53,636 bases of DNA from an uncultured Bacteroidales bacterium. GTDB taxonomy: Bacteria; Bacteroidota; Bacteroidia; Bacteroidales; UBA3663. The notes beneath the pieces were generated by a model. The model ran no database searches. It saw only the letters and a program-made list of their open reading frames with translations, and was not told the origin of the DNA. Below are positions 3,708 through 31,989 of this stretch, piece after piece. The stretch lies in assembly GCA_902776605.1 (NCBI GenBank), contig CACYQQ010000002.1, forward strand, positions 1 to 53,636. The letters run 5' to 3'. Each line of letters starts with the position of its first letter. Positions within the stretch are counted from its first letter, which is position 1. Position numbers and translations under genes: made by a program.

Positions 3708-3741
3708 GGACTCTCCCCGACCCTCCCTAAGAGGGAGGGAG
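3708..3741 (+). repeat. H element copy 1: GGACTCTCCCCGACCCTCCCTAAGAGGGAGGGAG hairpin module
   Basis: CCCTCCC/GGGAGGG 7-bp stem with a 5-nt loop. It starts 6 nt after the TGA stop at 3699-3701. Near-identical copies lie at 34653, 40127 and 42608. Confidence 0.85.
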
Positions 3742-3793: not shown

Positions 3794-3849
3794 GTTAACC
3801 CCTAACCGTTAACCCTTAACCGTTAACCCATAACCGCTAACCCTTAAAC
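3794..3849. repeat. Tandem heptad stutter TAACCNN (about 7 units)
   Basis: gttaacccctaaccgttaacccttaaccgttaacccataaccgctaaccctt. The same word family occurs at 4761-4813 and, inverted, at 13017-13047. Confidence 0.85.
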
Positions 3850-4679: not shown

Positions 4680-4701
4680 AAAACCCCTCACCCCATATTT
4701 T

Positions 4702-4813
4702 CCATAGTCACTATAGTTCCTATATTTCCTATAGTATCTATAGTTTCTATAGTCACTATCACCGTTAACCCCTAACCGTTAACCCTTAAACGTTAACCCC
4801 TAACCGTTAACCA
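4702..4813. repeat. Composite stutter array: CTATAGTNN nonamers (4702-4760) followed by TAACCNN heptads (4761-4813)
   Basis: ccatagtcactatagttcctatatttcctatagtatctatagtttctatagtcactatc, then accgttaacccctaaccgttaacccttaaacgttaacccctaaccgttaacc. It fills most of the spacer between the DUF3108 gene and yigZ. Confidence 0.85.
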
Positions 4814-4825
4814 TTTAAAAAGTCC

Positions 4826-5422: not shown

Positions 5423-5539
5423 AAGACAAACTTTAGTTTAAGCTAAAGGGCGCAGTTGCGCCGCTAAGATAATTCCAGTTAACTCCTTCAAACGAGCAAG
5501 TAATACATCAACCTTATAAACAACAAATTATCTATCACA

Positions 5540-6721
5540 ATGAAAAATTTTATCCTATCCTTCTTCCTCCTTGCCAGCAGCGCAGTCTGCATGGCACAAA
5601 TCAATTTGCGTGAGGGCATCGTCATTACCCTACAAGGAGACACTTTGCATGGCTCTATTGACTACCGCACCGACCAATTGAACGCGGAGCAATGCTTGTT
5701 CTTCCCCGACAGGAAAAATGAGTCAGTCACTTACAAACCTGGAGACATTGCAGGCTACCGTTTCTTGGACAATGGCCGCTATTATGTCAGCAGAGTGGTC
5801 GAAATCGAAGAAAACAAACAAAAGAACGTCTTCCTGGAATATGTGGTACGCGGAAATCTCAGCCTCTACTATTTGGATCACCCCGCCATAGTAGATAAAC
5901 TATACTTCTTGGAGGACGAAACTGGCAAAATGGTTAAGTTTAGATACTTAGGGATGGATCAAAAGCATTCCCTCCGTAACAAAAATTTGACCGATGCCTT
6001 TATGATGACCCGAAAGAGCGAGAAGGCTCAACAGATATTGTGGAGAAAAGAACCGAACAGAATTAACACCACAAAGGCCGTACTCACCTACAACAAAGAG
6101 GTGTGTCCCGATGGACAATGTGAAGTCATGGAGTACAAGAAGAAGAGGAAACCCTCCGAGGACAACATGTTCAAATTCGGCTTCAAGGCTGGTTATGCTA
6201 CTTACAACATGAAAGTAGGACGCGATTATGTTGTTGACAAATATAACGCTGGGGCACATTTTGCCGACTTTAAATTGCCTTACCTTTCAGTGGGTTGCGT
6301 CTATTACATCTCCCGACTTGCCAAAAACTTCTTTGGTGAGGCATTCCTCGCCTACTACCATTTTTCAGGCACGTACATTTACGATGATGGGTACACAAAA
6401 CCAAATACTATCTTCAAATATAAAGAAACCGACTTGACAGGCAAAATCGGCTTCGGCTATCATTGGAAGAACATCAACTATGTTCAACCACGTGTACGAG
6501 GAGGCGCTGCACTCTCATTTTTATGGGGTGATTGTGTCAAAGAAAATATGTCATTTTGTGATAATATAAAATGTACGCTTCATCCTGGCTATTATGCAGG
6601 AGCAGGAGTCTTGTTCCCTATCGGGAAGCATGCCATCACGCTGGACGTAGATTATAATTTATCCGACTATTACAAATCAAACATCAAACGAACCATTTTC
6701 GCCATTGGCTATCAATTCTAA
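5540..6721 (+). CDS. Putative outer-membrane protein, tandem paralog 1 (conserved N-domain, beta-barrel-like C-terminus ending IGYQF)
   Basis: Signal peptide MKNFILSFFLLASSAVCMAQ, 393 aa, C-terminal aromatic residue. It is a paralog of the next gene. Confidence 0.7.
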   Translation: MKNFILSFFLLASSAVCMAQINLREGIVITLQGDTLHGSIDYRTDQLNAEQCLFFPDRKNESVTYKPGDIAGYRFLDNGRYYVSRVVEIEENKQKNVFLEYVVRGNLSLYYLDHPAIVDKLYFLEDETGKMVKFRYLGMDQKHSLRNKNLTDAFMMTRKSEKAQQILWRKEPNRINTTKAVLTYNKEVCPDGQCEVMEYKKKRKPSEDNMFKFGFKAGYATYNMKVGRDYVVDKYNAGAHFADFKLPYLSVGCVYYISRLAKNFFGEAFLAYYHFSGTYIYDDGYTKPNTIFKYKETDLTGKIGFGYHWKNINYVQPRVRGGAALSFLWGDCVKENMSFCDNIKCTLHPGYYAGAGVLFPIGKHAITLDVDYNLSDYYKSNIKRTIFAIGYQF

Positions 6722-6724
6722 CGT

Positions 6725-7906
6725 ATGAAAAACTTATTTCTTACCCTTATCCTCCTTGCCAGCAGCGCCGTCTGCATGGCACAAATCAATTTGCGTGAGG
6801 GCATCGTCATTACCTTGTCGGGCGACACGTTACACGGTTCTATCGATTACCGCACCGACCAAATGAACGCGGAGCAATGTCTGTTCGTCCCCGATGGGAA
6901 AAGTGAGTCAGTCACTTACAAACCGGGAGAAATTGCAGGCTATCGCTTCTTGGACAATGGTCGACTTTATGTCACCAAGAAAATTAAGGACGATAAAAAC
7001 AATCTGCGCACCTTCTTCTTGGAATATGTAGTACGTGGACAATTGAGCCTCTACAGATTAAGTAGTTCAATCAAAGAAGATACCTACTTGCTCGAAGATG
7101 AAAATGGGCAGTTGGTACAATTCTCGGAAGAAGAGCAACAAATCGATGAACAATTGCATCGAACAAACCTCAAACCTGTTCTTGCCATGACAAGCAAGAG
7201 CCAGAGCACACAAAAAATGTTGTGGAAGCAAGCCGTGAACCGCAAAACGGTCACGAAAGCGGTAGTAAACTACAATAATGAAGTGTGCCCAGATGGTATC
7301 TGCGAGATATTGGAATATAAGAATAAGAAAACTCCTAATTCAGAAAAGTTGTTTCGCCCTACCGTCAAAATTGGAATGGTCAATTCCAACTTGATATCAT
7401 GTGCCTATTCTGATTTATCAAGGAACTATACGATGCAATATTCCGTCGGAGTGGACTACTATGCAGTTCGTCTTTCAAAAGGTCTCTTTGCCTCTTTCGA
7501 CCTCTCTTATTATCAAGCATCGCAAACAGAAAAGAAATATGAATATTATGATCCTCGTTATATAAAGACATTATATGCAAAAGAAGCATACCTGACGGTC
7601 GGCGCCGGATATCAATGGAAACGCTTCCGTTTCCAACCACGCCTGTACGGTGGATATGCTTTCTCCACATGTTGGGTAAAAGAAAAATGCGATTCTAAAG
7701 ACTATGGAACGACAATTGCCGTTCTCCTAAGAGGTTACCACTTCGGAGCTGGAGTTGTGTGCCCAATCAAAAAAGGAGCTATACTAATAGATTGTAAAAG
7801 CAGTGCTACCAGTTTGGGTGATCCATTATGGATGAGTCAAGATGAAGACATAAAGGGTAGTGTTGGTCGTCTGTCTCTCTCCATCGGTTATCAGTTCGGC
7901 TATTGA
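6725..7906 (+). CDS. Putative outer-membrane protein, tandem paralog 2
   Basis: Starts 3 nt after paralog 1 and is also 393 aa. The first ~80 residues are nearly identical to paralog 1 and the rest is divergent. It ends IGYQFGY. Confidence 0.7.
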   Translation: MKNLFLTLILLASSAVCMAQINLREGIVITLSGDTLHGSIDYRTDQMNAEQCLFVPDGKSESVTYKPGEIAGYRFLDNGRLYVTKKIKDDKNNLRTFFLEYVVRGQLSLYRLSSSIKEDTYLLEDENGQLVQFSEEEQQIDEQLHRTNLKPVLAMTSKSQSTQKMLWKQAVNRKTVTKAVVNYNNEVCPDGICEILEYKNKKTPNSEKLFRPTVKIGMVNSNLISCAYSDLSRNYTMQYSVGVDYYAVRLSKGLFASFDLSYYQASQTEKKYEYYDPRYIKTLYAKEAYLTVGAGYQWKRFRFQPRLYGGYAFSTCWVKEKCDSKDYGTTIAVLLRGYHFGAGVVCPIKKGAILIDCKSSATSLGDPLWMSQDEDIKGSVGRLSLSIGYQFGY

Positions 7907-8021: not shown

Positions 8022-8086
8022 CACCGGCAAATGGAGGGAAGTCTCTTGGGCAACTTTTTCTTCTCCATTTGCCGGTGGTCGTTATG

Positions 8087-8157
8087 ACGTCCTAACGCAG
8101 TTACGTTCTTTTTCCGTTCTTTTTGCTTTCTTTTTCGGTTCTTTTTCGTTCTTTCGG
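8087..8157 (-). repeat. Phased A-tract module, copy 1 (inverted relative to the copies at 36058 and 52232)
   Basis: The reverse complement reads CCGAAAGAACGAAAAAGAACCGAAAAAGAAAGCAAAAAGAACGGAAAAAGAACGTAACTGCGTTAGGACGT. Confidence 0.85.
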
Positions 8158-8234
8158 AAAGACGGGAAAAGGGAGCAACGTCGCCGAAGCAACTCCGAGA
8201 CCTGCCAGATAGTGAATAAGGGCAAAGGCACCAA

Positions 8235-8392
8235 GGCGCAGTTGCGCCGCTAAAAGGCTCTGCGAGCCGCAAAAAGAGCTAAAAGGCGCATTTGCGCCGC
8301 TAAAAGTTCACTTCGTTCACGCTAATGGCCTTCGGCGCTAATAGAGCAAAAGAGCTATCAATTGTCAATTATCAATTATCAATTATTAATTG
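8235..8392. repeat. Mosaic of GGCGCAGTTGCGCCGCTAA hairpin words, a TTAGCG/GCTAA module and a CAATTAT heptad stutter; overlaps the nadK stop
   Basis: GGCGCA(G/T)TTGCGCCGCTAA occurs at 8235 and 8283, and also at 5447. Positions 8300-8345 are the inverted match of 11680-11725 (GCCGAAGGCCATTAGCGTGAACGAAGTGAACTTTTAGCGGC). The caattgtcaattatcaattatcaattattaattg stutter supplies the last codons and the TAA stop of nadK. Confidence 0.8.
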
Positions 8393-9192
8393 TTTATCCC
8401 TCCTGCTCCCCACATCAGTTTCTGGCGGAGCGTGTCGAAGAAAGTGTGATCGGGGCGACGCACCACACGGATATTGTGAGCAGCGCGGCAGAGGTGCAGA
8501 GTATATTCGGTAGTGAGGTGGACAGGCAGGCCATCGACCGCCACCAGATAGAGGTTGTTGCGACTCTTGACCTTCACGTCGATAGTCACGCCATCCTTGA
8601 TGACCAAAGGGCGCGTCGTCAGCGAGTGAGGGGCAATCGGGACAATCTCGAAGCAATGCGAACCCGGTTCCAGGATGGGACCGCCTGCACTCATGGCATA
8701 GGCCGTCGAACCTGTCGGTGTGGCAATGGCCAATCCGTCAGCGTCGTAGGTGTTGAGCAACGCCCCGTCGATATAGACCGAGGCCGAGACCATGGCCGAC
8801 ACGTCGCGCTTGAGGACTGCGACCTCGTTGAGCGCAAATTGTGGGTATTGCTGCTTGCACTCGGGAATAGAGAGACGGAGCAGGGCGCGGTCCTCCACGC
8901 TGTACAGATGGTCGGTCAGCATCTGGGGCAACACGCTGGCGGCCTCCTCCAACTGCATGTCGGTCAGGAATCCCAACCGCCCGGCATTGATACCCAAGAT
9001 AGGGACTCCCGCCTCGCCCACGCACGCGGCGGTGCGCAGGAAGGTGCCATCGCCACCTATGCTGAGTGCCATATCGACCCCCTCGATGGACTGGGTGCCA
9101 TCCACGCACTTCACGTGGGGCAAGGATGCCAGGATGGACTGAATCTGCCGACAAGCCTCGGGCTTCGACGTGCCAAACAATGCTATTTTCAT
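8386..9192 (-). CDS. nadK: NAD kinase
   Basis: MKIALFG start at 9192 (the track's upstream extension is unlikely). Motifs GGDGTFL, ILGINAGRLGFL and TPTGSTAYAMSAGGPI are present. Confidence 0.9.
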   Translation of the reverse strand: MKIALFGTSKPEACRQIQSILASLPHVKCVDGTQSIEGVDMALSIGGDGTFLRTAACVGEAGVPILGINAGRLGFLTDMQLEEAASVLPQMLTDHLYSVEDRALLRLSIPECKQQYPQFALNEVAVLKRDVSAMVSASVYIDGALLNTYDADGLAIATPTGSTAYAMSAGGPILEPGSHCFEIVPIAPHSLTTRPLVIKDGVTIDVKVKSRNNLYLVAVDGLPVHLTTEYTLHLCRAAHNIRVVRRPDHTFFDTLRQKLMWGAGGINN

Positions 9193-9981: not shown

Positions 9982-9988
9982 ATTTTGA

Positions 9989-10097
9989 AAATTACTAATT
10001 ACGAATTACAAATTACTTTTCCTCATCGCTAAGAGGAAATAATCTGTAATCCCCTTCCCCAAAAGGAAGGTAATTAGTAATTTGTAATTAGTAATTT
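9989..10097. repeat. Long inverted repeat built from AATTACN heptads, filling the exbB-exbD spacer
   Basis: The left arm (9989-10016, aaattactaattacgaattacaaattac) pairs with the right arm (10070-10097) at 26 of 28 positions. The centre holds two small hairpins, TTTCCTC..GAGGAAA and CCTTCC..GGAAGG. The 24-mer at 10067-10090 recurs exactly at 53613-53636. Confidence 0.85.
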
Positions 10098-10107
10098 GCG
10101 AAGCATT

Positions 10108-10526: not shown

Positions 10527-10660
10527 TAAGGTTATAAGGTTGTAAGGTCGCTTCGCTGGTGAGGTTATAAGGTCGTTATGCTGACGAAGTTTCCTTGTCG
10601 AGGTTATAGGGTCAATAAAGGAACCTTAAAACCTAAAAACCTCATAACCTAAAAACCTCA
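10527..10660. repeat. Inverted arrays of AAGGTTAT / ATAACCT octamer words filling the exbD-tonB spacer
   Basis: aaggttataaggttgtaaggtcgcttcgctggtgaggttataaggtc ... then ggaaccttaaaacctaaaaacctcataacctaaaaacctca. The core ACCTCACCAGCGAAGCGACCTTAYAACCTT recurs, inverted, at 34802-34832. Confidence 0.8.
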
Positions 10661-11551: not shown

Positions 11552-11585
11552 AGAAATTAAAAATGAAAAATAAAGAGTGAAAAAT

Positions 11586-11740
11586 AAATTGAAAGTTGAA
11601 AATTGAAAAACCTCGGAGTATTCCGAGTACTCCGAGTATTCAGATTACTCCGATTACTCCGATGGCTCCCGAGCTCTTTAGTGCCGAAGGCCATTAGCGT
11701 GAACGAAGTGAACTTTTAGCGGCTCGAAGAGCCCATTAGC
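11586..11740 (+). repeat. Mosaic intergenic element (~150 bp), copy 1
   Basis: Modules in order: AAATTGAAAGTTGAAAA, a CTCCGAGTAYT stutter, GATTACTCCGATGGCTCC, then CTCTTTAG(C/T)GCC..GGC(C/T)ATTAGCG..CTTTTAGCGGCTCG.AGAGCC.ATTAG. The same order is found at 19286-19419. Confidence 0.85.
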
Positions 11741-11768
11741 TTTAACCGCGCCCTTTAGCCAATATTCG

Positions 11769-13016
11769 ATGAATCTTCTCACTGTCATACTTCACCTACC
11801 CTTCCTGACCTGTCTGGTCGGCTTTGTGTTGTCGTTCTACCTCAAGAAGAACGACACCGTGTATGTCATCATACCCCTTGCCGTGATAGGAATGTTATAT
11901 TATATGTGCGACGCCATCATCGTCAACCCCTATTCCGACGTCCACACCACCGTGATAGCCTCGGCGGCCGTACCGTTCCTGTCGCTCTTTTCCTTGGCCT
12001 TCATCATCTGCCTGATGTGGGTACTCTATTACGAAAAACACCTCCCCTGGCACCAATATCTCTGGTTCGTGGCGCCCATCGCCCTCTGCTCCATCTGCAC
12101 GATGCTCTACATCGTCATCGGCAACGAGGAGGCCGCCCATTTCCAAGCCCTCTACGACCAGTTGCGCCACTACCCAGAGTCGCACATCGAGTGTTCGGCT
12201 TTCCGTTGCCAACACTTTGTCGAACAGGTGCTATACAACTTCACCCTCTTCCTCTATTCCATCTACGCCATCCTGTTCGGCATCGTGATATTGTACAAGA
12301 CGGGCTTCACCCGCCACGCCTTCATCGGCTATTTCTTCAAGGGGACCAGTCTGCCGCCCATGCATATCCTGCTCCTCTCCTTTATCACGTTGATGCTCAC
12401 GGTGGTAGTCCGTGTCCTGGTGGGTCGATATTTCCTTTTCGACCACACTTGGGCCAACATCCTGTTTGCTTTTCTCCAGGCCTACTGCGTCATCCTGGTG
12501 ACTTTGGCTGCCTTCAACCTCAACTATGTGGAGTGCACCTTGCGCCAATATTGGTTCATCGACCCCAACGAGCGGTTCGATGACTCGCTGTTTGACGAGG
12601 CCGACGACGACTCCGCCGACAACAGCAACGCCGACCAGGACGCTTTCAGCAAGGTGCAGGAACGATTGGACAAGAGCCTTCACGAGGTGATGGAGGTGCA
12701 ACAACTCTTCCTGGACAGTAACCTCCGCATGACCGATGTGACGCGCCTCCTCAGCACCAACCGCAACTATCTGTCGCGCCACCTCAAGGAACGTTACCAC
12801 CTGAGTTACAACGAATATATCGCCCACCTCCGCATCGAATATGCCAAGCAATACATGCTCCAACATCCCGACATGCTGCTCGATGCCATCGCCGAACACT
12901 GCGGTTTCGGCACCGCCCAATCCTTTGGCCGCAAGTTCAAGGCCATGGAGGGTATCACTCCCCGCACCTGGTTGGTGAGGAAGAAAGTTAAGGGCAGCGT
13001 GGAGAGTGATTTATAA
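11769..13016 (+). CDS. Membrane-embedded AraC-family transcriptional regulator (multi-TM N-domain plus C-terminal HTH_18)
   Basis: Roughly 7 hydrophobic segments, an acidic linker (DDSLFDEADDDSADNSNADQD), then an AraC HTH (LLSTNRNYLSRHLK...FGTAQSFGRKFKAMEGITP). Confidence 0.8.
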   Translation: MNLLTVILHLPFLTCLVGFVLSFYLKKNDTVYVIIPLAVIGMLYYMCDAIIVNPYSDVHTTVIASAAVPFLSLFSLAFIICLMWVLYYEKHLPWHQYLWFVAPIALCSICTMLYIVIGNEEAAHFQALYDQLRHYPESHIECSAFRCQHFVEQVLYNFTLFLYSIYAILFGIVILYKTGFTRHAFIGYFFKGTSLPPMHILLLSFITLMLTVVVRVLVGRYFLFDHTWANILFAFLQAYCVILVTLAAFNLNYVECTLRQYWFIDPNERFDDSLFDEADDDSADNSNADQDAFSKVQERLDKSLHEVMEVQQLFLDSNLRMTDVTRLLSTNRNYLSRHLKERYHLSYNEYIAHLRIEYAKQYMLQHPDMLLDAIAEHCGFGTAQSFGRKFKAMEGITPRTWLVRKKVKGSVESDL

Positions 13017-13047
13017 AGGGTTAGGGGTTAACGTTTAAGGTTTAAAC
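13017..13047. repeat. TAACCNN-family heptad stutter (inverted), starting right after the stop of the AraC-type gene
   Basis: agggttaggggttaacgtttaaggtttaaac follows the TAA at 13014-13016. Confidence 0.75.
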
Positions 13048-19189: not shown

Positions 19190-19285
19190 GTTTGATTAAA
19201 TTTGTTAATAAATAAGTTAGTTTGAAATTATTCGCTAAATGATTGTACCTTGATTACAAACTTGAGGGAGCTAACGGACAAAAGA

Positions 19286-19419
19286 AAATTGAAAGTTGAA
19301 AAACTTCCGAGTACTCCGAGTATTCCGATAACTCTGATTACTCCGATGGCTCCCGCGCTCTTTAGCGCCAAAGGCTATTAGCGCGCGAAGCACTTTTAGC
19401 GGCTCGCAGAGCCTATTAG
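19286..19419 (+). repeat. Mosaic intergenic element, copy 2 (in the susC upstream region)
   Basis: Same module order as 11586-11740. Confidence 0.85.
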
Positions 19420-19631
19420 TTTCTTCTGTCGTCTTTAACTACTTAATTAACTCCATTACACATTTCCAACCTCAAGTATTTTTCACTACGCGTATTTGTG
19501 GTTACAATGATGTTTTTCACCCACAAATATGGTAATTATTTAATATACTGGTGCAAATTTATTAAATATTTTTAATATATCTGCTAAAATTTGTGAATCG
19601 GGGTGCCATTTTGCCCCTTTTTCAACAATTT

Positions 19632-23797: not shown

Positions 23798-23825
23798 CTC
23801 AAGAATTAGAGAATTGGAGAAAGAA
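23798..23825 (+). repeat. CTCAAGAATTAGAGAATTGGAGAA module (GAATTAGA stutter)
   Basis: The same module heads each unit of the 52338-52995 tandem array and occurs inverted at 33133-33161. Confidence 0.8.
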
Positions 23826-24004
23826 TAGAAAACGTGATTCAATAAATCTCCTCCAACGGGTTAAACTATAAACGTGGAATTTTACAGAAATCGCCCTTAC
23901 CTACCGCAAAGTAACACAATATTTAATATACCAAGGTCGAATCATGGTTAAAAAATGGGTAAATGGCCACAAATTCAGGGCGTTGGGGACAAAGTGTAAA
24001 GTTG

Positions 24005-24049
24005 AAAATCACATTTGAAACGCAAAAAAGTCATTTCAAATGTGATTTT
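24005..24049. repeat. Perfect 16-bp inverted repeat AAAATCACATTTGAAA / TTTCAAATGTGATTTT with a 13-nt loop
   Basis: Read directly from the sequence; arms at 24005-24020 and 24034-24049. Confidence 0.85.
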
Positions 24050-24077
24050 GGATTTTCAAAGCGGAGTCTGTTCTCCT

Positions 24078-24169
24078 AAATCGCTTAGTCCATTAAGCGA
24101 TTTTTGCCAAATTTCGCTTATTGCAGTAACCTTTTTTGACCGAGAATCGCTTATTGCAGTAAGCGATTC
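24078..24169. repeat. Two 10-6-10 palindromes (A/G)AATCGCTTA-N6-TAAGCGATT(T/C) plus a third half-site
   Basis: Palindromes at 24078-24103 and 24144-24169. The 16-nt direct repeat TCGCTTATTGCAGTAA occurs at 24114 and 24147. Confidence 0.8.
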
Positions 24170-24583
24170 CGTCCGAATGAGGATAGTACCTCCCCCTACC
24201 GTCGCGCTCCCAATCGGGGCAAACTTGGGTCAATAATTGGTCTTAATTCGGTGATTGATTTCTCTTGATCCGACCTTACGCCAATCATACTCCAATCAAT
24301 ACCCAATCGATACCTGACTAATACAAAATCATCACAGCAACAGCCGATGGACGGCAGGGTACAAGAGGAGCGAAAGGGGTAGAACGAAAATGCTGTTGCA
24401 GGGAAAGATTCTCAATACCGAGAAAAATGCTTAAACAAAAATCCTAAGATAAAGAAGAGTAAAAATATCGAAGGAATTATATAGAACAAAAGCATAAACC
24501 ATTGACTATGCTTGATGCATTTTTGATTATCAAATTTTCGTTTAGAGGTCAATAATTGGACAATCTTTTCAATGTCTTTATCC

Positions 24584-24991
24584 TCAAAATAGTTCTATCC
24601 TTAGGGTATTTATCTTTCGTTCATACTGGTCATAAAAATCCAAGAACTGATAATGATAATTTCCATATCTACCAAATTGGTACGACCGCGTTCTGCAATA
24701 TTGGAAATCCTTCCACGACAGTTCTACCCTTTTGCGCAAAAACAAGGGACCTGTTCTTCCTTCAAATAATAAGCCAGAACTATTGATCGTCAGCCGGTTA
24801 TGCAACCGTACTAAATAATGAGTTATCATCCATAAAAAAAACAATGCCCAAAAGAAGAAAAAGGGCAAATTCTTAATCTCTTCAATGCTCAGAAGGAAGA
24901 GTATAAAAGAAAAAACAATACACATTCCCACCCCAAAATAGCTTTGAGCTTTTGAGGGTGAGAATGTTATGGGTTGATTATTTTCTTTCAT
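24584..24991 (-). CDS. Small membrane protein (2 TM plus a possible bacterial PH-like domain)
   Basis: 135 aa, AT-rich, with two hydrophobic helices followed by a soluble ~70-aa domain. The PH-like call is a guess. Confidence 0.55.
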   Translation of the reverse strand: MKENNQPITFSPSKAQSYFGVGMCIVFSFILFLLSIEEIKNLPFFFFWALFFLWMITHYLVRLHNRLTINSSGLLFEGRTGPLFLRKRVELSWKDFQYCRTRSYQFGRYGNYHYQFLDFYDQYERKINTLRIELF

Positions 24992-25009
24992 GATTACTTC
25001 TATTTTGCC
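24923..25009. repeat. 87-bp direct repeat, left copy
   Basis: 79 of 87 positions are identical to 25681-25767. It covers the first 23 codons of the 135-aa gene and its upstream 18 nt. Confidence 0.9.
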
Positions 25010-25110
25010 TATTGCTCAAATAATACAGAACCGTATTCTATTTCAATAGATGCCAAATTTCGATTTTTCAGTAAGCGATTTAGACTGAATTATTCAAATT
25101 TCAAAAAAAC

Positions 25111-25641
25111 TTACTGGCGAGCAGGTTTATCTTTTATGACCAATGTAATAAGAACTCCAAGCAATAACATTATAATTGAAAAGAAGATGATTTCGAAATG
25201 CCCAACTGCTGGAGTTTCTAAATCATGAGATACATTATTATAATACAAAATCATCGAATATTTCAATGCTACACATACTGCAGATAAAGTATACAAATGA
25301 AATACTAAAAAGCTCTTTAAGTTCTTTGCTACATAATAATTAATTATTACTGCCAAAGGAATTTCCACAAACAAGATAGCATCTCCACTTACACCTGTTC
25401 TATAAATAATCATATTCCAAACGGGTATCAAGGAACTAAAGGTTAAGGAAACTAGAGTAATCCAATTAAGACTCTTGTTTATTAACCACAAAGACAGAAC
25501 CGCTACTATCAATGACGTGACATTAATAACCCCAGCCCACAATTTTGGGCTTTCTATCTCTACTGGAAGACATAGAACACCCCAACAGATAAAGATGGCC
25601 GAACCTATCAGCAGCAAAATGGCAAAAAGTATCTTTTTCAT
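25111..25641 (-). CDS. Polytopic small membrane protein (~5 TM), function unknown
   Basis: 176 aa, very hydrophobic, AT-rich. It lies between the two 87-bp direct repeats. Confidence 0.6.
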   Translation of the reverse strand: MKKILFAILLLIGSAIFICWGVLCLPVEIESPKLWAGVINVTSLIVAVLSLWLINKSLNWITLVSLTFSSLIPVWNMIIYRTGVSGDAILFVEIPLAVIINYYVAKNLKSFLVFHLYTLSAVCVALKYSMILYYNNVSHDLETPAVGHFEIIFFSIIMLLLGVLITLVIKDKPARQ

Positions 25642-25668
25642 TTTTAAATGTTTTTGTTATTATGTATT

Positions 25669-25752
25669 TCAATACAAAAACATTCCCACCCGCAAATAGC
25701 TCTGAGCTTTTGAGGGTGAGAATGTTATGGGCTCATTATTTTCTTTCTTCAT
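25669..25752 (-). pseudogene. 27-codon remnant of the N-terminus of the 135-aa membrane protein, coupled by TAATG to the DUF4919-like gene
   Basis: MKKENNEPITFSPSKAQSYLRVGMFLY* aligns with MKENNQPITFSPSKAQSYFGVGM of the gene at 24584..24991. It lies inside the right 87-bp repeat. Confidence 0.6.
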
Positions 25753-25767
25753 TACTTCTCTTTTGCC
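25681..25767. repeat. 87-bp direct repeat, right copy
   Basis: See 24923-25009. It includes the last 5 codons and the stop of the DUF4919-like gene. Confidence 0.9.
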
Positions 25768-26423
25768 AGTTTCTTTGCATGAGAATTGTCGAACCAGATT
25801 TTTTTCTTGGTATAGTATTGGCTGATTTGAGTCAATTCGATGACGTCGCAGTTGCCGACTTCGCTTTGGCCGGCGAACTCATTGAGTTCGAGGTAATAGC
25901 GCATGAAGTTGTACTCATCCGATGCTTTGGTCACGAAGAAAGGCATCTTCTGTGTGCCGTTGCCCGTCGTTTCGATAGTGCTGTAGATGCTGTTGGCACG
26001 CTTGAGGAAATTGTCGGCATCGGACTCGAAGAAGTTTGGACTGCCCGCCTCCAGTTGTCTCCGGATACTCCACTCGGCAATGCGCAAGGCGGTGAGCGAC
26101 AGGGAGTTCATCTCCAAGGCATAATTAGCCAAGCGATAAGACTCCTTGTACTTACCGGCATTGTAAGCCTCCTCGGCCTTGACGGCCATACCCTCCTCGC
26201 GGTTCTTGGTCAAGACGGCTTGGCCATAAACCGCCAGGCGTTTCTCGTCGGCAGTCAAGGTGCGATCTACGGCAACCAGGCGCTCTACGAGAGCGCGGAT
26301 AGAGTCGGGTTGATTAGCTGCGAGACGCTCCACAGCGCTCCAGTTGATAGGTTTGATTTCGCTCTGCGCAAAGGCTGCGAAGAACAAGATACTGAAAAAC
26401 AGAATCAATGAAGTCTTTTTCAT
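25752..26423 (-). CDS. DUF4919-like secreted protein, paralog A
   Basis: Has a signal peptide. It shares TTGNG..PF(F/Y)VT..SDEYNFMRY.LE..F.GQ..G.CDVI.L...SQYY...WFD with 31031..31720. The family name is from memory. Confidence 0.6.
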   Translation of the reverse strand: MKKTSLILFFSILFFAAFAQSEIKPINWSAVERLAANQPDSIRALVERLVAVDRTLTADEKRLAVYGQAVLTKNREEGMAVKAEEAYNAGKYKESYRLANYALEMNSLSLTALRIAEWSIRRQLEAGSPNFFESDADNFLKRANSIYSTIETTGNGTQKMPFFVTKASDEYNFMRYYLELNEFAGQSEVGNCDVIELTQISQYYTKKKIWFDNSHAKKLAKEK

Positions 26424-26468
26424 AAGCCAAGAATATATCTTAAATTTCCCAAATGGTTATTTACGCTG

Positions 26469-26476
26469 CAAAGATA
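26469..26476 (-). promoter_or_regulatory. -7 box TATCTTTG for DUF4919-like paralog A
   Basis: Reverse complement of caaagata, 45 nt upstream of the ATG at 26423. Confidence 0.5.
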
Positions 26477-26529
26477 ACTAATAAGTAAACAATATGCAAG
26501 AAATTGCAAATATTTCTATATTTATTACA

Positions 26530-29394
26530 TTATTTTGACTTATCTTGCAAGACAGACGTATTCTTTTCCAAGCGGAAATAGATATAACTGATGAGGAAGA
26601 GCAGGATGCCTGCCACGAGGAAACTGATGGGTCGATAGAAAGCATTGTCGAACACGATGTCCCAGAACAGCAACTTGATGACGCAGACCATGGTAAGTAC
26701 TAGTCCGTAGAGGCGTAACCCCTTGTAGTTGAAGCGGAAACCTGCCACGATGAAGGCGATGGCAAGGACGATGCCGGCCAACGAAATGAGGTAGGAGACG
26801 GCCGAGAACCGACCGAGGATGATCCACAAGGTCCAGGTGAACTTCAAACCGTTGTAGAAGCTCACTCGCCGCTCTGGCATATACCGCATCAAGGAATTGA
26901 CGCGACGCAGGTTGACAACAGCCAGCATCAGGACAAAGACAACCAGCAAAGCGGTACTATATGGTTCCGTACCTTCTTGGCTATGAATGAAATACAACGG
27001 TTCGGGGCTCTCTCGGAGTAAGCCTGTGCCGACCAACAAGAGGAACTCGTGGGCAATCATACAGATTTTGTTGCAAACCGAATCGAGGGTTCCTGTCTGC
27101 GGATCGATGGCAAAACGCAAAACACCACATGCGATGACAAAAAGGGAACACAATGCCCAAACCTCTGTTCCGCCCAACAAGTCACATGCACCCAAGGCGC
27201 AGATGAAACACAGACCCAAGGCTGTCAACCCGAGTTTGTCGGTCCGGTTGTAGTGTCGCCAAGTCCAATAGGCACAACCCAAAACGGGCAACAGATAGAC
27301 ACCCCAAAACGCCATACGCACCGACAGTTTGTCAAAGAACATACTGAACATTAGATTGATTGCCAATAGGATGTAGGCCACCACTTTAACCACGTCATTC
27401 CTCTTGTGATGAGCCTCCAGCCAAAGCATCACACCTGCGGCAAGTCCGATAATGGGACCACCATATCGGTTAGGGATGGCAAGTAAAGCCGCGAGATGGT
27501 CACTGGCCGACGAAACAACCAACAAGTAAATTCTCAATGGAACGACAGCAACGGCCAACAAGACACTCAGTCCTAAGATGCCATCCCAGGCTCTCTTGGT
27601 TTTGAGGTCTGCACCCGTGACAATCTCAGGTTTGAATGTCAACGTCATGCAATAGGCAAAAAGACAAAGACAGGTCAGTTCACTATCCAACCAATTACAA
27701 ATGCACAACTCACAAATGCCCCATGCCAATCCGCATAGGAGTATCCCTTTCTCCAACTGCGCACACCGGCGCCAGAGCCAGTAGCCGAAACCGACCAAGG
27801 TCGCCAAATAGAGGAAGATGCCACTCTGCAAATGCATATATACCTGCACCTGCTCAAAGGGCTCTGGACCAGTCTGTTCGGACACCTCGTAGGGTATGGA
27901 CAGACGGTCGGCATAACTGCATGTGTAGAGAAATAGGTAAACATAGCCTAAGTATCTGACTTTCGCCTTGTTGTAATAGCAACCCAATCCTAAGGCTAAC
28001 AGCGCAGGCACAAAGAACGAGCCGCACCAGCCGTGATAGAAAGTGCCGAAATTCAAGGCAGGAATCACGACGGCAGTAAATCCGCTCATCAGGTAGAACA
28101 GGACTTTCCGATTCTTCAACGACGAACTGCCAAAGTATTTGTAATACAGCGCACTGAGGCCTATCAGCGTGACACTCAACAAGAGACTCCACGCCACCGG
28201 ATTGTCAAACAAAGGGGTAGAATCGAAGTAGTAATCCAGTCTCAAGAAATTCGCATTATCACGATATTGGAACTGTGTGGCGCTCCACATCAATACGAAC
28301 AACGTAAGGAGGGTTGGTACTGCCAAAAGGAGGCGTTGACGAATCTGTCGGTGGTAGTAAATCACCTGACCCACCAACACGGCAGTCGTCGATAGGAAGA
28401 TAAGCAACTGCGCCAACGTGCTGCTGTCATAGTTGTCGGCCATGGGCAACATCACCAACGGATATTGCCACAACAACCAGGCATCCTGCTTGTAGCGGCG
28501 TGTCCAATTGGTAGCAAACAAGGCACCCACACTGAGCATATAGACAATAAGTCCGACGGGTGAACCACCCCAACGTTGCACGGTCATATAGGCCGAAATC
28601 AAGATACCGATGTAGCAGATGTAACAGAACATCCGTGACTTGTATTTGCTCAATGCCGTCATGGCAGCTATCCACAGCACGACACAGACCATCAGAGGCA
28701 CTTCGGGCAACACACCAAGCACCAGATGCGACACTAACAAGGTGACGTACAGACCCGCTGAACCGCATCCTGCCAGTGCGGCAAACAGGGTACGGAATTT
28801 TGTGCTGCTATGCATTCGCCAGACACCGACACCAGCTATCGCGGCACTCACCACCGTCATCAGGATGGCCTTCATCGTATCGGTCAGACGAGGTTGTATC
28901 AGACTGCCGAACAGCACTAAGGCAAAGATAATCAACGCCGAACCAGCCAGCGGAATGAGCATCTTGCCAATCTTGGACTCCAACGACTTGCCCGCTGGAT
29001 TCAGCTCGTCCGTCGCCGCCGCATTTCCTGCCGAGTGGGGCAATGCCGGTTGCATTCTTCCCATCGGTTGGAAATCAATCGGTTCGGCGACCGTCACTGC
29101 TTGTTCCTCTTCGGCCGCTGGCTCTACCTCAGTTTCAACAGCAGTTGTCTCTATGACGGGCTCCATTGGATACTCCTCAACCTTGGTCTCCACGGTAGGC
29201 TCCTCTTCGGCAATCGAAGTGGGTGCAGTCTTGTCTCTCAGTACTTCTTCGCCAACCGACATAAACGACTGCATATCAATCTCTTCGGCCTTCAGAAGCG
29301 CCATTTCGCGTTGCAACTCAGCGACCTGGGCTTCCAGTTCGCTGACGCGCTCCTCCAAACTCTGTTTTTGTCTTAATGAATCCATAGTTTTCAA
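26530..29394 (-). CDS. DUF2339-type large polytopic membrane protein with an N-terminal coiled coil
   Basis: 954 aa. The N-terminus LEERVSELEAQVAELQREMALLKAEE is followed by an acidic linker and more than 20 hydrophobic segments. Confidence 0.7.
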   Translation of the reverse strand: MKTMDSLRQKQSLEERVSELEAQVAELQREMALLKAEEIDMQSFMSVGEEVLRDKTAPTSIAEEEPTVETKVEEYPMEPVIETTAVETEVEPAAEEEQAVTVAEPIDFQPMGRMQPALPHSAGNAAATDELNPAGKSLESKIGKMLIPLAGSALIIFALVLFGSLIQPRLTDTMKAILMTVVSAAIAGVGVWRMHSSTKFRTLFAALAGCGSAGLYVTLLVSHLVLGVLPEVPLMVCVVLWIAAMTALSKYKSRMFCYICYIGILISAYMTVQRWGGSPVGLIVYMLSVGALFATNWTRRYKQDAWLLWQYPLVMLPMADNYDSSTLAQLLIFLSTTAVLVGQVIYYHRQIRQRLLLAVPTLLTLFVLMWSATQFQYRDNANFLRLDYYFDSTPLFDNPVAWSLLLSVTLIGLSALYYKYFGSSSLKNRKVLFYLMSGFTAVVIPALNFGTFYHGWCGSFFVPALLALGLGCYYNKAKVRYLGYVYLFLYTCSYADRLSIPYEVSEQTGPEPFEQVQVYMHLQSGIFLYLATLVGFGYWLWRRCAQLEKGILLCGLAWGICELCICNWLDSELTCLCLFAYCMTLTFKPEIVTGADLKTKRAWDGILGLSVLLAVAVVPLRIYLLVVSSASDHLAALLAIPNRYGGPIIGLAAGVMLWLEAHHKRNDVVKVVAYILLAINLMFSMFFDKLSVRMAFWGVYLLPVLGCAYWTWRHYNRTDKLGLTALGLCFICALGACDLLGGTEVWALCSLFVIACGVLRFAIDPQTGTLDSVCNKICMIAHEFLLLVGTGLLRESPEPLYFIHSQEGTEPYSTALLVVFVLMLAVVNLRRVNSLMRYMPERRVSFYNGLKFTWTLWIILGRFSAVSYLISLAGIVLAIAFIVAGFRFNYKGLRLYGLVLTMVCVIKLLFWDIVFDNAFYRPISFLVAGILLFLISYIYFRLEKNTSVLQDKSK

Positions 29395-29429
29395 GTTGTT
29401 ATGCCCAATAATGAAAGCTGTCTCTTCTA

Positions 29430-30014
29430 TTACTTTTTCACTTTACAATCCACTTCGAATGGGATGATAGCGTTCAACGCCTTTTGTCGGAAGTCGGCCA
29501 ACTTATCATGCATGAAGGGCATGATGTCGTCTCCATAGACGCGGTGGGTGTAGAAGATTAGTTGCAAGGCAGGGGAACCATTCACCTTTATCATTCGGTA
29601 TTTATGGACATCAAATTCAATCATTTCAAGGGAGTCGTTCTTGCTCAGATAACACATGAAATCAATCATCCATTCCGACTTATCCGGACTGTTGCTGATG
29701 GCCCAATTCCAGACATCCTTATTCTTACGACCCTGCAATTCCTCCTCCTTGGCCTTCACTGCCATTTCGGGGTTTACGATGGGAGGAACATTCGTAATGA
29801 CAGAGACTGTAAACATATCGTCATACTTCTCGTAGGTCTGTCCCTTTGGAAAATACTCCTGCAAATAGACCGTCGAGCTGTTTTGGCTAAATCCCAAATG
29901 ATACTGGATGCCGTTGAATTTCAAATCACTCACACCGAGGTAGTCCTGCACCTTTTGTGCCATCAACGTCGTCGATGCCAAAACCAACAGCAAGGATAAG
30001 ATAAGTTTTTTCAT
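29430..30014 (-). CDS. Secreted hypothetical protein (194 aa), likely co-transcribed with the DUF2339-type gene
   Basis: Signal peptide MKKLILSLLLVLASTTLMAQ; 35-nt gap to the next gene. Confidence 0.6.
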   Translation of the reverse strand: MKKLILSLLLVLASTTLMAQKVQDYLGVSDLKFNGIQYHLGFSQNSSTVYLQEYFPKGQTYEKYDDMFTVSVITNVPPIVNPEMAVKAKEEELQGRKNKDVWNWAISNSPDKSEWMIDFMCYLSKNDSLEMIEFDVHKYRMIKVNGSPALQLIFYTHRVYGDDIMPFMHDKLADFRQKALNAIIPFEVDCKVKK

Positions 30015-30042
30015 CGCGTCTATAAGATTAAATTTATGTCGT

Positions 30043-30135
30043 TTACGGTGCTGCCCTTACAGGGCGAACCCTCTCTTGCTCCACGGGACCCCAGGCGCTG
30101 CCTGGGGCTGACCGGTATTGCGCTTTCAGCGCGTC
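30043..30135 (+). repeat. REP-like element A (three hairpins)
   Basis: GCCCTTACAGGGC, CCCCAGGCGCTGCCTGGGG and GCGCTTTCAGCGC. It is homologous to elements B and C. Confidence 0.85.
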
Positions 30136-30340
30136 ATCAAACAGAGAACACTGTATCTTCAAAACCGCGCAGACAATAGCAAAGGATGTTTCGTTCGGTC
30201 CGATAGGATAGCTTCGAACTATACCAGCATCAATTATTCCTTAATGCTTGTGTTTTCGCTCTGATTAATAGAATAGTTCTTGAACCAACCTCGAAAGTTT
30301 TACTTGAACATTTCCTTATGATAATTATGTCTTGCATAGA

Positions 30341-30434
30341 GGAACGCCACGAAGTGGCAATACCGATCAGCCCAGGGCAACGCCCTGGGTTTACGTGGGC
30401 AAGAAAGGAATGCGCCCTGTAAGGGCAACACCGT
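30341..30434 (-). repeat. REP-like element B (inverted), abutting the RAYT 3' end
   Basis: The reverse complement carries GCCCTTACAGGGC, CCCAGGGCGTTGCCCTGGG and GCCACTTCGTGGC. Confidence 0.85.
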
Positions 30435-30440
30435 CAATAA

Positions 30441-30896
30441 TCAATCTGTCCATAGATATTTCTCGTCATATTCAATGTTATACAATTGAAGGAACTGGAT
30501 ATACTCATCCCGAAAGGATTGCTTCTTATGGTGTTCCGCTTGGTTCTGCAAGTAACGAATCACCGTATTGACTTGTGATTGCCCAATGGAAAATGCCCCA
30601 TATCCACCTTGCCACGCAAAGTCTTCATAATAAGGCGACAAGGTCTTTATCCAACGACTACTATTCCGCTTCATCTCTTCCACCACATGAGCCGTATTTT
30701 CTGTCTTGGACAAGGTAATGAGCACATGAACATGGTCTTCCGTCCCTCCCACCTGCAAAACTTGGCAACCTGCAATATTCACCATCTTTCCGATGTAACG
30801 GTGCAAGGAATCAATATCTTCAGGTCTGATTATACGGCACGACGTTTTTAGGTGAAATACGATGTGCAAGTATATTTTTGTAAGCGATTGTGACAT
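30441..30896 (-). mobile_element. REP-associated tyrosine transposase (RAYT) / IS200-like Y1 transposase
   Basis: 151 aa: MSQSLTKIYLHIVFHLK, HUH motif DHVHVLITL, WQGGYGAFS, catalytic-Tyr region VIRYLQNQAEHH. It is flanked by inverted REP elements B and C. Confidence 0.85.
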
Positions 30897-30917
30897 TTAA
30901 TCATTTTATTTATAGGT

Positions 30918-31011
30918 TCTTACGGTGCTGCCCTTACAGGGCGAATGTCCTCTATCTACTTGAGACCCAGGGCGTTGCCCTGGGCTATTCGATGTTGCGC
31001 TTTCAGCGCGT
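30918..31011 (+). repeat. REP-like element C, abutting the RAYT 5' end
   Basis: Hairpins at 30930-30942, 30966-30984 and 30997-31009. Confidence 0.85.
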
Positions 31012-31030
31012 TTACCGAATCCACACGATT

Positions 31031-31720: not shown

Positions 31721-31895
31721 TGTGTTTATTAGTTTGATTTTTGTTCTGTATTTAGTTTATTGTCTTTCAAGGACTTCGAACTATTCAAAATTACCGAATA
31801 ATTGCCCACCGAATGTCTCTATTTAAGGAAATATGACAAAAACGGCCATGCAAATATACATATAAAAACTGAAATGCCCGCACCTTTTGTCCATT

Positions 31896-31943: not shown

Positions 31944-31989
31944 TCTATGCGATATTAAGTAGTTGGTAATAATAATCTGGACCAACAAC

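Follow-up and report, generated by a model that had tools for sequence, protein, structure and literature searches.

Long-unit simple repeats have been known in bacterial intergenic DNA for decades. The BOX elements of Streptococcus pneumoniae are modular, and eukaryotic foldback transposons have long inverted termini made of short tandem repeats. As recounted in passages of PMC4679880 and PMC4692102, simple repeats with units of 5 to 11 nt, heptamers leading, are over-represented in the intergenic DNA of some bacteria (Mrázek 2007), with polymerase slippage as the cause put forward; the same passages include in this class (LSSR) the STRR heptamers of cyanobacteria, GGGAATC of Xanthomonas, and GGGGAYT of Nostoc. 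Direct repeats of TAACTGA occur in Beggiatoaceae, Cyanobacteria, and a few Bacteroidetes (MacGregor 2015, PMC4679880). BrickBuilt of Porphyromonas gingivalis is a MITE built around a minisatellite (PMC4596501), and BIMEs, REPs, and REPINs are elements of Enterobacteria and Pseudomonas (PMC3116915, PMC3733652).

We analyzed tandem arrays of short words in an uncultured rumen Bacteroidales lineage, using a window of 53.6 kb (the whole stretch of DNA under study, with 8,236 intergenic and 45,400 coding bases) and its orthologous loci. These arrays belong to a kind of bacterial repeat that is known but poorly understood, of which they are a rich example; they are not a new kind of system. Like LSSRs, they consist of tandem 7- to 11-nt units in excess, head to tail, are strongly intergenic, and differ in sequence, length, and unit number between close relatives and strains; they too have occasional inverted pairs, no established function, and slippage as a proposed origin. 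They differ from LSSRs in their host, an uncultured rumen Bacteroidales lineage, and in using many words with no one dominant heptamer: period 7 leads the TRF rows (7), closely followed by periods 8, 9, and 11 (5 to 6 rows each). They also form part of composite modules that recur. None of STRR1-3, TAACTGA, GGGAATC, or GGGGATT occurs even twice in tandem within the window. The preliminary description of this DNA, made from the sequence alone, went too far in denying that the words are a known repeat type or ordinary low complexity, since simple repeats of 5 to 11 nt had already been described (PMC4679880, PMC4692102), as had a minisatellite-bearing MITE in Porphyromonas (PMC4596501), but it was right to set them apart from CRISPR: the 7- to 11-nt units abut directly, with no spacers between them.

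The other systems resemble the arrays in part. Like the TAACTGA repeats, they include heptamer arrays of 2 to 6 or more units, mostly a few nucleotides 5′ of starts, with stop codons in the units and in organisms or contexts without canonical ribosome-binding sites; the word here is another one, its orientation to the downstream gene is inconsistent, and arrays follow stops equally often. BrickBuilt, by its description, shares a Bacteroidales host and a strictly intergenic, multicopy, non-coding form around a spacer-less tandem repeat, with flanking subunits (leader and tail) that have small inverted repeats, but its unit is 23 nt in one family, whereas here units of 7 to 11 nt form mosaics of many families. 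BIME, REP, REPIN, and BOX elements are likewise intergenic mosaics of a GC-rich hairpin and other short motifs, often within operons or just 3′ of stops, whose internal unit number varies. The variable parts here are tandem 7- to 11-nt words and not 45-nt boxes or REP pairs; the arrays themselves are not GC-rich imperfect palindromes of 20 to 40 nt, although a REP-like hairpin adjoins some of them. The resemblance to eukaryotic foldback transposons is structural only: the exbB-exbD element and the GGAGTTAAC element have inverted tandem-word arms, but they measure about 120 to 330 nt, sit in a bacterium, and come with no identified transposase or target-site duplication.

Arrays were called with TRF (period 5 to 22), merged, and listed without strand. 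The intergenic DNA of the window contains 27 merged short-period arrays (3.3 per kb), which cover 14.5% of its bases, versus 3 (0.07 per kb) in coding DNA; dinucleotide-shuffled intergenic DNA yielded 0.28 ± 0.57, and a 50-kb comparator stretch of E. coli K-12 had no arrays of period 7 to 11. The longest array is 88 nt, and except where they touch stop codons, all of the intergenic arrays in the window lie outside reading frames. Most lie between co-directional genes. Very often they end 0 to 13 nt from a start or stop codon, and those just 3′ of stops are as frequent as those just 5′ of starts. Every array on the initial list was seen in its place by TRF and inspection (3794, 8356, 9990, 10070, 10527, 10622, 11612, 13017, 19306, 23802, 24281, 33136, 34785, 40172, 42692-42831, 47082-47162, 52342, 52563, 52786, 53027, and 53616). 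That nearly every spacer contains one was an overstatement: at a TRF score of at least 40, arrays occupy 14 of the 28 spacers of at least 40 nt, a few further spacers have weaker arrays, and no such spacer in the low-GC stretch at 24 to 32 kb has one. We grouped words by exact canonical form, as single linkage with one mismatch had chained all AT-rich heptamers together. In intergenic DNA, the density of word cores is mostly 4 to 140 times that in coding DNA (exceptions are AACCT, 1.9 times, and CCAATC, 0.6 times), so the similar density in coding DNA that would have pointed to plain compositional bias was not seen. The recurrence of words at unlinked loci was borne out as well. Different spacers have 295 12-mers in common, compared with 11.5 for shuffles and 13 for size-matched coding chunks, and in a self-BLAST of the window every non-paralog match pairs two intergenic segments.

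The focal spacer, between a DUF3108 gene and a yigZ-like gene, illustrates the composite nature of these sequences. Its first half is a (CTATAGTNN)x6.2 array at 4704-4759, followed at 4761-4812 by (TAACCNN)x7.4 (both TRF), which has a 14-nt super-period with GTTAAC in every second unit and ends 13 nt 5′ of the TTG start of the yigZ-like gene. The composite (4692-4799, CTATAGT plus TAACC) is found again about 6 kb away, inverted and 86% identical over 108 nt (contig L023, 2970-3075). Another (TAACCNN)x7.6 array at 3795-3847 (TRF), 7 nt upstream of the ATG of the DUF3108 gene, is 90% identical to 4764-4821 by self-BLAST. The word also occurs reversed, as a GGTTA array at 13017-13047 directly 3′ of the stop codon of an AraC-type gene (13014-13016), with 4779-4808 matching 13045-13016. 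Its orientation thus varies, one way at 3795 and 4761 and the other at 13017, and in relative L004 it is the G-rich strand that precedes yigZ. Among strains, L025 has 4 units of CTATAGTNN versus 6.2 in the window and a CAATTAT array in place of the TAACC array; in L027/L028 and L029-L031 the unit number and order of the TAACC array are altered, and its length ranges from 6.6 to 9.6 units across strains.

Words recur because they are part of larger modules of 100 to 330 nt, dispersed over multiple unlinked intergenic sites, with homology that runs past the arrays. The parts of these modules are REP-like hairpins, word arrays, and foldbacks with tandem-word arms. The hairpin, GGACTCTCCCCGACCCTCCCT-N4-AGGGAGGG, was found by self-BLAST and motif scan at 3708-3741 on the plus strand, and three further copies start at 34653, 40127, and 42609; each of the 4 copies lies 0 to 6 nt from a gene end and adjoins word arrays. 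One such array is (CTAGAANNN)x6.8 at 40172-40232 (TRF), 3′ of the hairpin in the spacer of an hlyD-like and an ftsX-like gene, where positions between the CTAGA cores vary in strains L036, L039, and L041. A module with an 11-mer array of the GAAAAAGAACG family (8086-8168, self-BLAST) has further copies at 36041-36153 and 52217-52308; L036 has 5 units of the array at 36063-36139, for which the window has 7. A composite at 11554-11768 (TRF and self-BLAST) consists in order of A-rich heptamers, (CTCCGAGTA)x5.7, and small GC hairpins with YWTTAGC linkers; it is homologous to 19284-19422 (152 bp, 82%; self-BLAST), a second CTCCGAGTA composite with degenerate GGAGCTAAC / TTAACTCC arms, and in part to 8277-8347 and 47113-47176, so that a composite of about 150 nt occupies three or more loci. 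The exbD/tonB-like spacer (10527-10660, TRF) has (TAAGGTTN)x3 at its 5′ end and (AACCTNAA)x5 at its 3′ end, mutually inverted. Its architecture is the same in L002, other strains of the species have a GGAGTTAAC/GTTAACTCC foldback instead, and relatives of the module lie at 34763-34836 and 42796-42831 (self-BLAST).

Several other spacers are built in similar fashion. At 42650-42831 (TRF, self-BLAST), a 71-nt segmental duplication with CTATAGTNN arrays is followed by (AACCTNAN)x4.5, which reaches the ATG of an ABC ATPase gene; the duplication is absent in strain L041, and other strains have a different left-hand module. The spacer at 47064-47229 (TRF) holds inverted ATACTCGGAG / CTCCGAGTAT words and a (CTCTTTA)x3.9 array and is about 18 to 20 nt shorter in L036, consistent with one 18-nt unit. 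The (AGAATTAG)x2.5 word at 23802-23821 (TRF, self-BLAST) is also found at 33131-33168 and in each copy of a 223-bp x3 repeat at 52333-52995. Downstream of comM, a cluster at 32757-33201 (TRF) has (AACGAA)n, AACTCAATTGGT x2.8, a 19-mer x2, (ACGAAA)x4, AATTCTCT x2.8, and a 16- to 17-mer x2.9.

We compared unit numbers at orthologous loci of same-species strains, which are 94 to 98% identical in genes, and found gain and loss of whole units at five or more arrays. Entire modules turn over as well. There are two alternative alleles each at exbB-exbD and at ftsX-ABC, strains have differing modules at exbD-tonB, upstream of comM, and at DUF3108-yigZ, and we saw one apparent nested insertion and the 71-nt duplication. 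At the same sites, more distant relatives have spacers of 4 to 35 nt or arrays of other words, and some words or close variants recur in species at 75 to 80% protein identity. The modules share with MITEs their small size, non-coding nature, dispersed copies, and presence/absence polymorphism at orthologous sites. Terminal inverted repeats are clear for the AATTAC, AAGGTT/AACCT, and GGAGTTAAC modules and absent or degenerate for many arrays. The single transposase of the window, a Y1 protein encoded at 30441-30896 and considered as a candidate RAYT (REP-associated tyrosine transposase), reaches 56.9 bits with the IS200 model (cutoff, 55) and 22.1 with REP_Tyr_transpos (cutoff, 80); on both sides of its gene lie inverted hairpin modules from a separate sequence family, unrelated to the array modules.

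In our judgment, the arrays are probably long-unit microsatellites that reside in small modular intergenic elements and change by slippage. The preliminary description had suggested a slippage-prone mobile module family among other possibilities, and this is the one we favor, given the whole-unit changes, the composites that recur beyond the arrays, and the modules that are swapped, nested, or absent. The units of 7 to 11 bp would arise and change length through replication slippage. Their carriers would be a varied population of small, non-coding, MITE/BIME-like, non-autonomous elements, assembled in varying order from a few parts: a GC-rich hairpin of REP-like form, word arrays (at least one), small hairpins chained by a conserved linker, and sometimes a foldback formed by a pair of arrays of one word in inverted orientation. 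Whole modules appear to be inserted, replaced, nested, or duplicated in very short spacers, and their distribution suggests spread by mobility, probably transposition of non-autonomous elements and/or recombination between dispersed copies. Since the length of most units is not divisible by three and stops are frequent in them, they would wreck a reading frame, and such elements would therefore be tolerated and persist only between genes. Most copies are likely neutral or selfish passengers transcribed within operons and not a dedicated regulatory system. Against this explanation, many arrays are without an inverted partner, and neither target-site duplications and sharp element ends nor a cognate transposase could be identified in the 53.6 kb and orthologous loci. 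Furthermore, array ends 0 to 13 nt from a start or stop could reflect function and not insertion into tiny spacers.

We considered that arrays and foldbacks may be functional RNA in polycistronic transcripts, acting in stability, processing, or translational coupling, for example by lowering ExbD relative to ExbB, or as G-poor unstructured leaders in an organism without Shine-Dalgarno initiation. Several lines of evidence point this way. In addition to the co-directional setting of most arrays and their lack of overlap with canonical promoter matches, several C/A-rich arrays stop 2 to 13 nt short of a start codon, foldback arms pair almost perfectly, and the folding of array-bearing spacers is significantly better than that of shuffles and better than that of spacers that lack arrays. 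That last result gives partial support to the initial proposal of a structure-forming RNA; the inconsistent orientation of the words, and the 4- to 35-nt spacers without arrays in most relatives, speak against it. Indeed, the same word is found in both orientations relative to transcription, and for this reason we rejected a translation leader as a general explanation. Same-species strains have entirely different modules at one junction, which also counts against an RNA element, as does the result with Rfam: nothing relevant was found in the whole window at the gathering threshold or in 51985-53636 at an E-value threshold. Overall, we regard a general RNA function as doubtful. A foldback is not the general form either, as inverted partners were seen at no more than 4 of 80 environmental loci and the copy at 19255-19465 does not fold significantly (z = -1.6 for the 19284-19422 composite). 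None of the 5 matches in the window to TTTG-N17-21-TAnnTTTG, the canonical Bacteroidetes promoter motif, overlaps an array; we rejected both a promoter role and, as arrays are also outside reading frames save for stops, a phase-variation locus.

The spacer between exbB and exbD deserves separate consideration. An inverted-repeat search and folding located a foldback at 9984-10102, with arms (AATTACN)x4 and (GTAATTN)x4 and two inner hairpins; its z score for folding is -8.8 as RNA and -7.2 as DNA. A GTAATTN array at 53616-53636 (self-BLAST) is cut by the window end, and 53613-53636 is 100% identical to 10067-10090 in the right arm. The foldback differs from that of a sister species at 1 position in 110 nt, while the flanking genes are only 83 to 95% identical, far better conservation than in its flanks. 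This near-identity across two species, which favors an RNA element and sits uneasily with slippage-prone mobile modules, suggests that at least this module is either under constraint or was exchanged very recently. No compensatory changes in the arms were seen in the strain comparison, which would argue against an RNA element. Strains L025/L030 have a different module at this site (allele B), an inverted hairpin doublet like those of BIME/REP/REPIN elements, and relatives L003-L011 have spacers of 4 to 35 nt; the comparison of these alleles, which is one of alternative modules with no same-species empty site, gives a possible ATTT target-site duplication. It is conceivable, though in our view unlikely, that some modules are kept by selection, as structured cis-elements or recognition arrays for a protein, instead of being neutral passengers. 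Foldbacks with tandem-word arms, clearest at exbB-exbD, are the best candidates for such maintenance. If it were so, this Bacteroidales lineage would have an intergenic word system of its own, possibly a bacterial foldback-type family of mobile elements with word-array termini or, alternatively, a post-transcriptional layer in operons without Shine-Dalgarno sites.

A related idea is that a nucleoid-associated, regulatory, or transposition protein binds the tandem words, with each core as one site. Units differ mostly at 1 to 3 positions outside the cores, as judged by eye (the logos presupposed a core match and are circular in this respect), and the occurrence of some words or close variants in species at 75 to 80% protein identity would fit as well. 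Many words had been described as containing a palindromic hexamer; this holds for 13 of 26 arrays, and the enrichment in consensus units is real but modest (9 versus 3.3 expected from composition). The spacing of 7 to 9 bp does not match the helical repeat, however, no protein emerged as a candidate, dimer duplication accounts for the alternating units (14- and 18-nt super-periods), and modules are dispensable and interchangeable among strains. We also looked for the words beyond the lineage. (AATTACN)x4 is present in at least 120 metagenome contigs of 25 to 67% GC and TAACCNN x4 in at least 118 IMG/VR contigs, but arrays of two arbitrary control words of the same composition are as common as TAACCNN among the IMG/VR matches listed. 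Since control words are equally widespread among these matches, wide occurrence says nothing special about our words, and we rejected a shared vocabulary beyond the lineage. Nothing specific favors binding platforms, which are an improbable general account. Heptamers dominate arrays in unrelated environmental contigs, and this, together with common control-word arrays, fits a generic slippage process.

We think it very improbable that arrays are a by-product of restriction-modification pressure, with palindromes purged from genes and surviving or accumulating only in spacers. In the 45 kb of coding DNA, TCTAGA is missing against an expectation of 4.6 and GTTAAC is present twice against 5.3; both are enriched in spacers, and palindromic hexamers as a class number 391 in coding DNA versus 684 expected. 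The depletion in genes that had been proposed as a sign of such a link fails for CTATAG (5 observed versus 4.2 expected), and TAATTA and TTATAA exceed expectation in coding DNA; the counts for single hexamers, TCTAGA and GTTAAC included, are too small for firm statistics. Half of the arrays are without a palindrome, and avoidance leaves tandem amplification unexplained.

That the arrays are assembly or polishing artefacts is hardly credible, even though one Logan contig ends within a CTATAGT array and the window is without 122-, 127-, and 23-nt segments in three genes compared with near-identical contigs: identical arrays are found in independent assemblies from several samples and pipelines (contigs L023/L026, L035/L164 from ENA, and L024 from Logan; the check was made on assemblies), homologous arrays in variant forms that differ by whole units are present in JGI contigs and NCBI MAGs, and at 88 nt or less all arrays are spanned by single reads.

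The lineage is unusually rich in such repeats, with about one seventh of intergenic DNA in arrays of many word families, and many rumen and gut metagenomes have yielded samples of it at strain, species, and genus distance. Public data therefore allow direct measurement of unit gain and loss rates, module turnover, and possible constraint. In practice, spacers with arrays break short-read assemblies and make intergenic comparison between strains unreliable. Arrays can also supply stop codons and alter protein C termini, and the preliminary description was correct about three stops. The 13014-13016 stop is abutted by an array, as is the comM stop at 33197, next to the 16- to 17-mer, when the reading of the gene follows contigs L164/L165. 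The stop and last two codons of nadK are supplied by CAATTGA/TAATTGA units of a (CAATTAT/TAATTGA)x5 array at 8356-8391 (TRF), and this heptamer array has 2 to 10 units across strains and species.

The two arrays of the focal spacer are real: (CTATAGTNN)x6.2 at 4704-4759 and (TAACCNN)x7.4 at 4761-4812 lie within the 200-nt spacer between the DUF3108 gene and the yigZ-like gene. All remaining arrays listed in the preliminary description were likewise found where it had placed them. We divided the window into coding and intergenic DNA with a gene map built on Pfam-supported reading frames. The 8.2 kb of intergenic DNA holds 27 merged arrays (3.3 per kb, 14.5% of bases), against 3 in 45.4 kb of coding DNA and 0.28 in dinucleotide-shuffled intergenic DNA; a 50-kb E. 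coli comparator contained no array of period 7-11. Plain compositional bias would put the words at similar density inside genes, but word cores were mostly 4-140 times denser in intergenic than in coding DNA. Different spacers have 295 12-mers in common, against about 12 in shuffles. The array observation is real and highly significant. The initial claim that nearly every spacer carries an array was too strong: at a TRF score of 40 or more, arrays occur in 14 of the 28 spacers that are 40 nt or longer, and a few further spacers have weaker ones. No spacer of the low-GC stretch at 24-32 kb contains a short-period array. Palindromic hexamers, said to occur in many words, are present in half of the arrays, but the enrichment is modest (9 in consensus units versus 3.3 expected).

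Assembly artefacts do not account for the arrays. Independent assemblies from different samples contain identical arrays, other assemblies contain whole-unit variants, and every array is 88 nt or shorter. Compared with three near-identical contigs (L164, L165 and L035, at least 99.9% identical where aligned), the window is short of 122 nt in comM (33338/33339), 127 nt in a tolC-like gene (38117/38118) and 23 nt in an hlyD-like gene (39586), and these genes therefore look frameshifted. No microhomology flanks the 122-nt comM gap. The three coding gaps probably reflect faulty assembly or merging, or else deletions carried by rare variants; no array is affected by them.

The recurrence of the same words at unlinked loci, also part of the preliminary description, was borne out by self-BLAST, in which the words are carried by homologous intergenic segments larger than the arrays. 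Homology reaches past the arrays, and all repeats are intergenic save a single pair of paralogous genes and a single match running into an unannotated ORF. An inverted copy of the CTATAGT+TAACC composite (4692-4799) lies just past the edge of the window, about 6 kb upstream. Another composite, of about 150 nt, is found at 11591-11742 and 19284-19422, with partial copies at 8277-8347 and 47113-47176; it runs from A-rich heptamers through (CTCCGAGTA)n to small GC hairpins with YWTTAGC linkers. An 11-mer module occupies 8086-8168, 36041-36153 and 52217-52308. Four copies of a REP-like hairpin, GGACTCTCCCCGACCCTCCCT-N4-AGGGAGGG, adjoin arrays, each 0-6 nt from a gene end. Some modules are foldbacks with arms of tandem words, and in the exbD-tonB spacer AAGGTT words stand opposite AACCT words.

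Small GC-rich hairpins form chains at 8207-8345, 11663-11760, 19347-19420 and 5440-5470. Stems within a chain are unlike each other (for example GGCGCA..TGCGCC, GGCTC..GAGCC and GCC..GGC), the linker is conserved (GCTAAAAG on one strand, YWTTAGC on the other), and unit number differs among strains. Three copies of a 223-bp unit, with 87% identity, occupy 52333-52995, and in each copy (AGAATTAG)x2.8 is accompanied by a second GAATTAGAGAATTC motif. This repeat matched no Rfam family, and a near-identical contig, L037, apparently has fewer copies.

For strain comparison, we used contigs encoding identical ExbD or ABC-ATPase proteins, which gave at least six strains of the same species (genes 94-98% identical) and a sister species about 84% identical. 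Unit copy number at orthologous loci differed by whole units. Where the window has 7 copies of the 11-mer, strain L036 has 5; the heptamer at the nadK stop is present in 2-10 copies and the TAACC unit in 6.6-9.6, and an 18-mer array changes by about one unit among strains. Entire modules are also swapped. Between exbD and tonB, the window has the AAGGTT/AACCT module, and other strains have a GGAGTTAAC foldback enclosing the CTCCGAGTA composite. The ftsX-ABC spacer has two left-hand alleles, and the window also carries a 71-nt duplication there. The spacer upstream of comM is wholly different in L036, and strain L025 has a CAATTAT array in place of the TAACC array in the focal spacer. As first proposed, an array supplies the nadK stop: in lineages carrying the CAATTGA array, it provides the stop together with the two codons before it. 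The C terminus (8386-8394 and orthologues) reads INN* or VDN* where a CAATTGA/TAATTGA array encodes it. Relatives without this array have other ends (RE*, RY*, RV* and others), and in two of them, L001 and L002, a different array lies just past the stop.

Gene order (Big_5 - DUF3108 - yigZ - nadK - exbB - exbD - tonB-like - AraC) is conserved in 12 related species, but the spacers are not conserved despite this synteny. Depending on the species, the DUF3108-yigZ spacer contains CTATAG+TAACC, GGGTTA, AAGAATTA, CTAGAA or GGAGATAAAGA words, or none.

The best explanation is that these are slippage-prone long-unit simple repeats in MITE/BIME-like mosaic modules. The arrays would be long-unit microsatellites whose length changes by slippage, sitting inside mosaic, non-autonomous intergenic elements; such elements would be gained, lost and exchanged, surviving only between genes. 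Because neither target-site duplications nor a mobilising enzyme could be defined in the window and orthologous loci, we infer module mobility from the sequences and do not claim it as shown. The repeat class itself has been described. Passages in PMC4679880 and PMC4692102 that cite Mrázek 2007 report 5-11-nt simple repeats, heptamers foremost, as over-represented between the genes of scattered bacterial lineages, and polymerase slippage is the hypothesis put forward. The cyanobacterial STRR heptamers belong to this long-unit class; TAACTGA repeats lie directly before start codons in hosts that include a few Bacteroidetes (PMC4679880); and the BrickBuilt MITE of Porphyromonas gingivalis, also of the Bacteroidales, is organised around a 23-nt minisatellite (PMC4596501). 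The published words (STRR, TAACTGA etc.) never occur in tandem in the window, and the arrays therefore do not belong to a known family, though the class is known. They are a new, unusually rich case of a described repeat class.

The exbB-exbD spacer contains a foldback (window 9984-10102) in which (AATTACN)4 stands opposite (GTAATTN)4, with a folding z of -8.8 as RNA and -7.2 as DNA. The length of this spacer varies among related species: the window has 114 nt, L012 has 148 nt with the same word, L002 has 254 nt with AGTTATT words opposite AATAACT words, and L003-L011 have 4-35 nt. Comparison with L029/L031 (5875-6000), L025 (5849-6000) and L030 (5840-6000) revealed two alleles, the AATTAC foldback versus a REPIN-like hairpin pair around a CCCATTNAN array, and each of the sister species has both. 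The AATTAC foldback has 1 difference in 110 positions between the two species, whereas identity in neighbouring 60-nt coding windows is 83-95% and divergence picks up again at the foldback edges. Given the flanking divergence, the chance of so few differences is about 1e-3 to 1e-4. For the alternative allele, a manual count puts identity between the species at about 93%. The conservation of the foldback fits recent interspecies spread, gene conversion from other copies or purifying selection, and merits follow-up.

Inverted pairs of AATTAC-type heptamer arrays around 40-200 nt also occur in unrelated environmental contigs (L048 2987-3084; L100 11729-11954; L103 11063-11273; L122 8568-8654), and word-array foldbacks are therefore wider than this lineage. 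At least 120 metagenome contigs, with GC contents of 25-67%, carry (AATTACN)x4, and heptamers predominate among their arrays; only 4 of 80 such environmental contigs have an inverted partner.

Other readings fared less well. For a restriction-modification link through avoidance of the palindromes, CTATAG gave no support, and counts of TCTAGA and GTTAAC are too small to tell. A general leader or RNA-code function is disfavoured because word orientation is mixed relative to transcription. The canonical Bacteroidetes promoter matches in the window all lie outside arrays, and an Rfam search returned nothing relevant. TAACCNN x4 is frequent in IMG/VR, as are two control words matched to it in composition; such a spread is thus a generic property of heptamer arrays and does not point to a shared code.

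Pfam scans of the window identified SusC/SusD, a hybrid two-component regulator, ExbB/ExbD, nadK, comM, topoisomerase IV subunit A and a TolC-HlyD-FtsX-ABC efflux operon. Among the species representatives of the genome collection, the nearest are MAGs of uncultured Bacteroidales from rumen and gut, with nadK proteins that share 61-80% identity with that of the window; public contigs from ENA, Logan and Stewart rumen assemblies match parts of the window at 99.8-100% identity. The low-GC stretch at 24000-32000 (36-49% GC) contains several genes that match no family, along with DUF2339, DUF4919 and a transposase gene of the Y1 (IS200-type) kind (30441-30896, minus strand), and may be a horizontally acquired segment. 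Three copies of a triple-hairpin module of about 90 nt surround the transposase (30042-30134, 30343-30437 inverted, and 30920-31012), a layout that resembles a REP-transposase unit. The sole non-tRNA Rfam match in the window, Acido-Lenti-1 (30966-31010), lies inside one of these modules. At 5540-7906 are two tandem paralogous 393-aa genes, 81% identical over their first 330 nt; other strains of the species have one 402-aa outer-membrane beta-barrel gene there (L025 2607-3815), and the sister species has none. The yigZ-like gene apparently starts with TTG at 4826, 13 nt downstream of the end of the TAACC array, and its relatives start with ATG (MEDTYLTI...).
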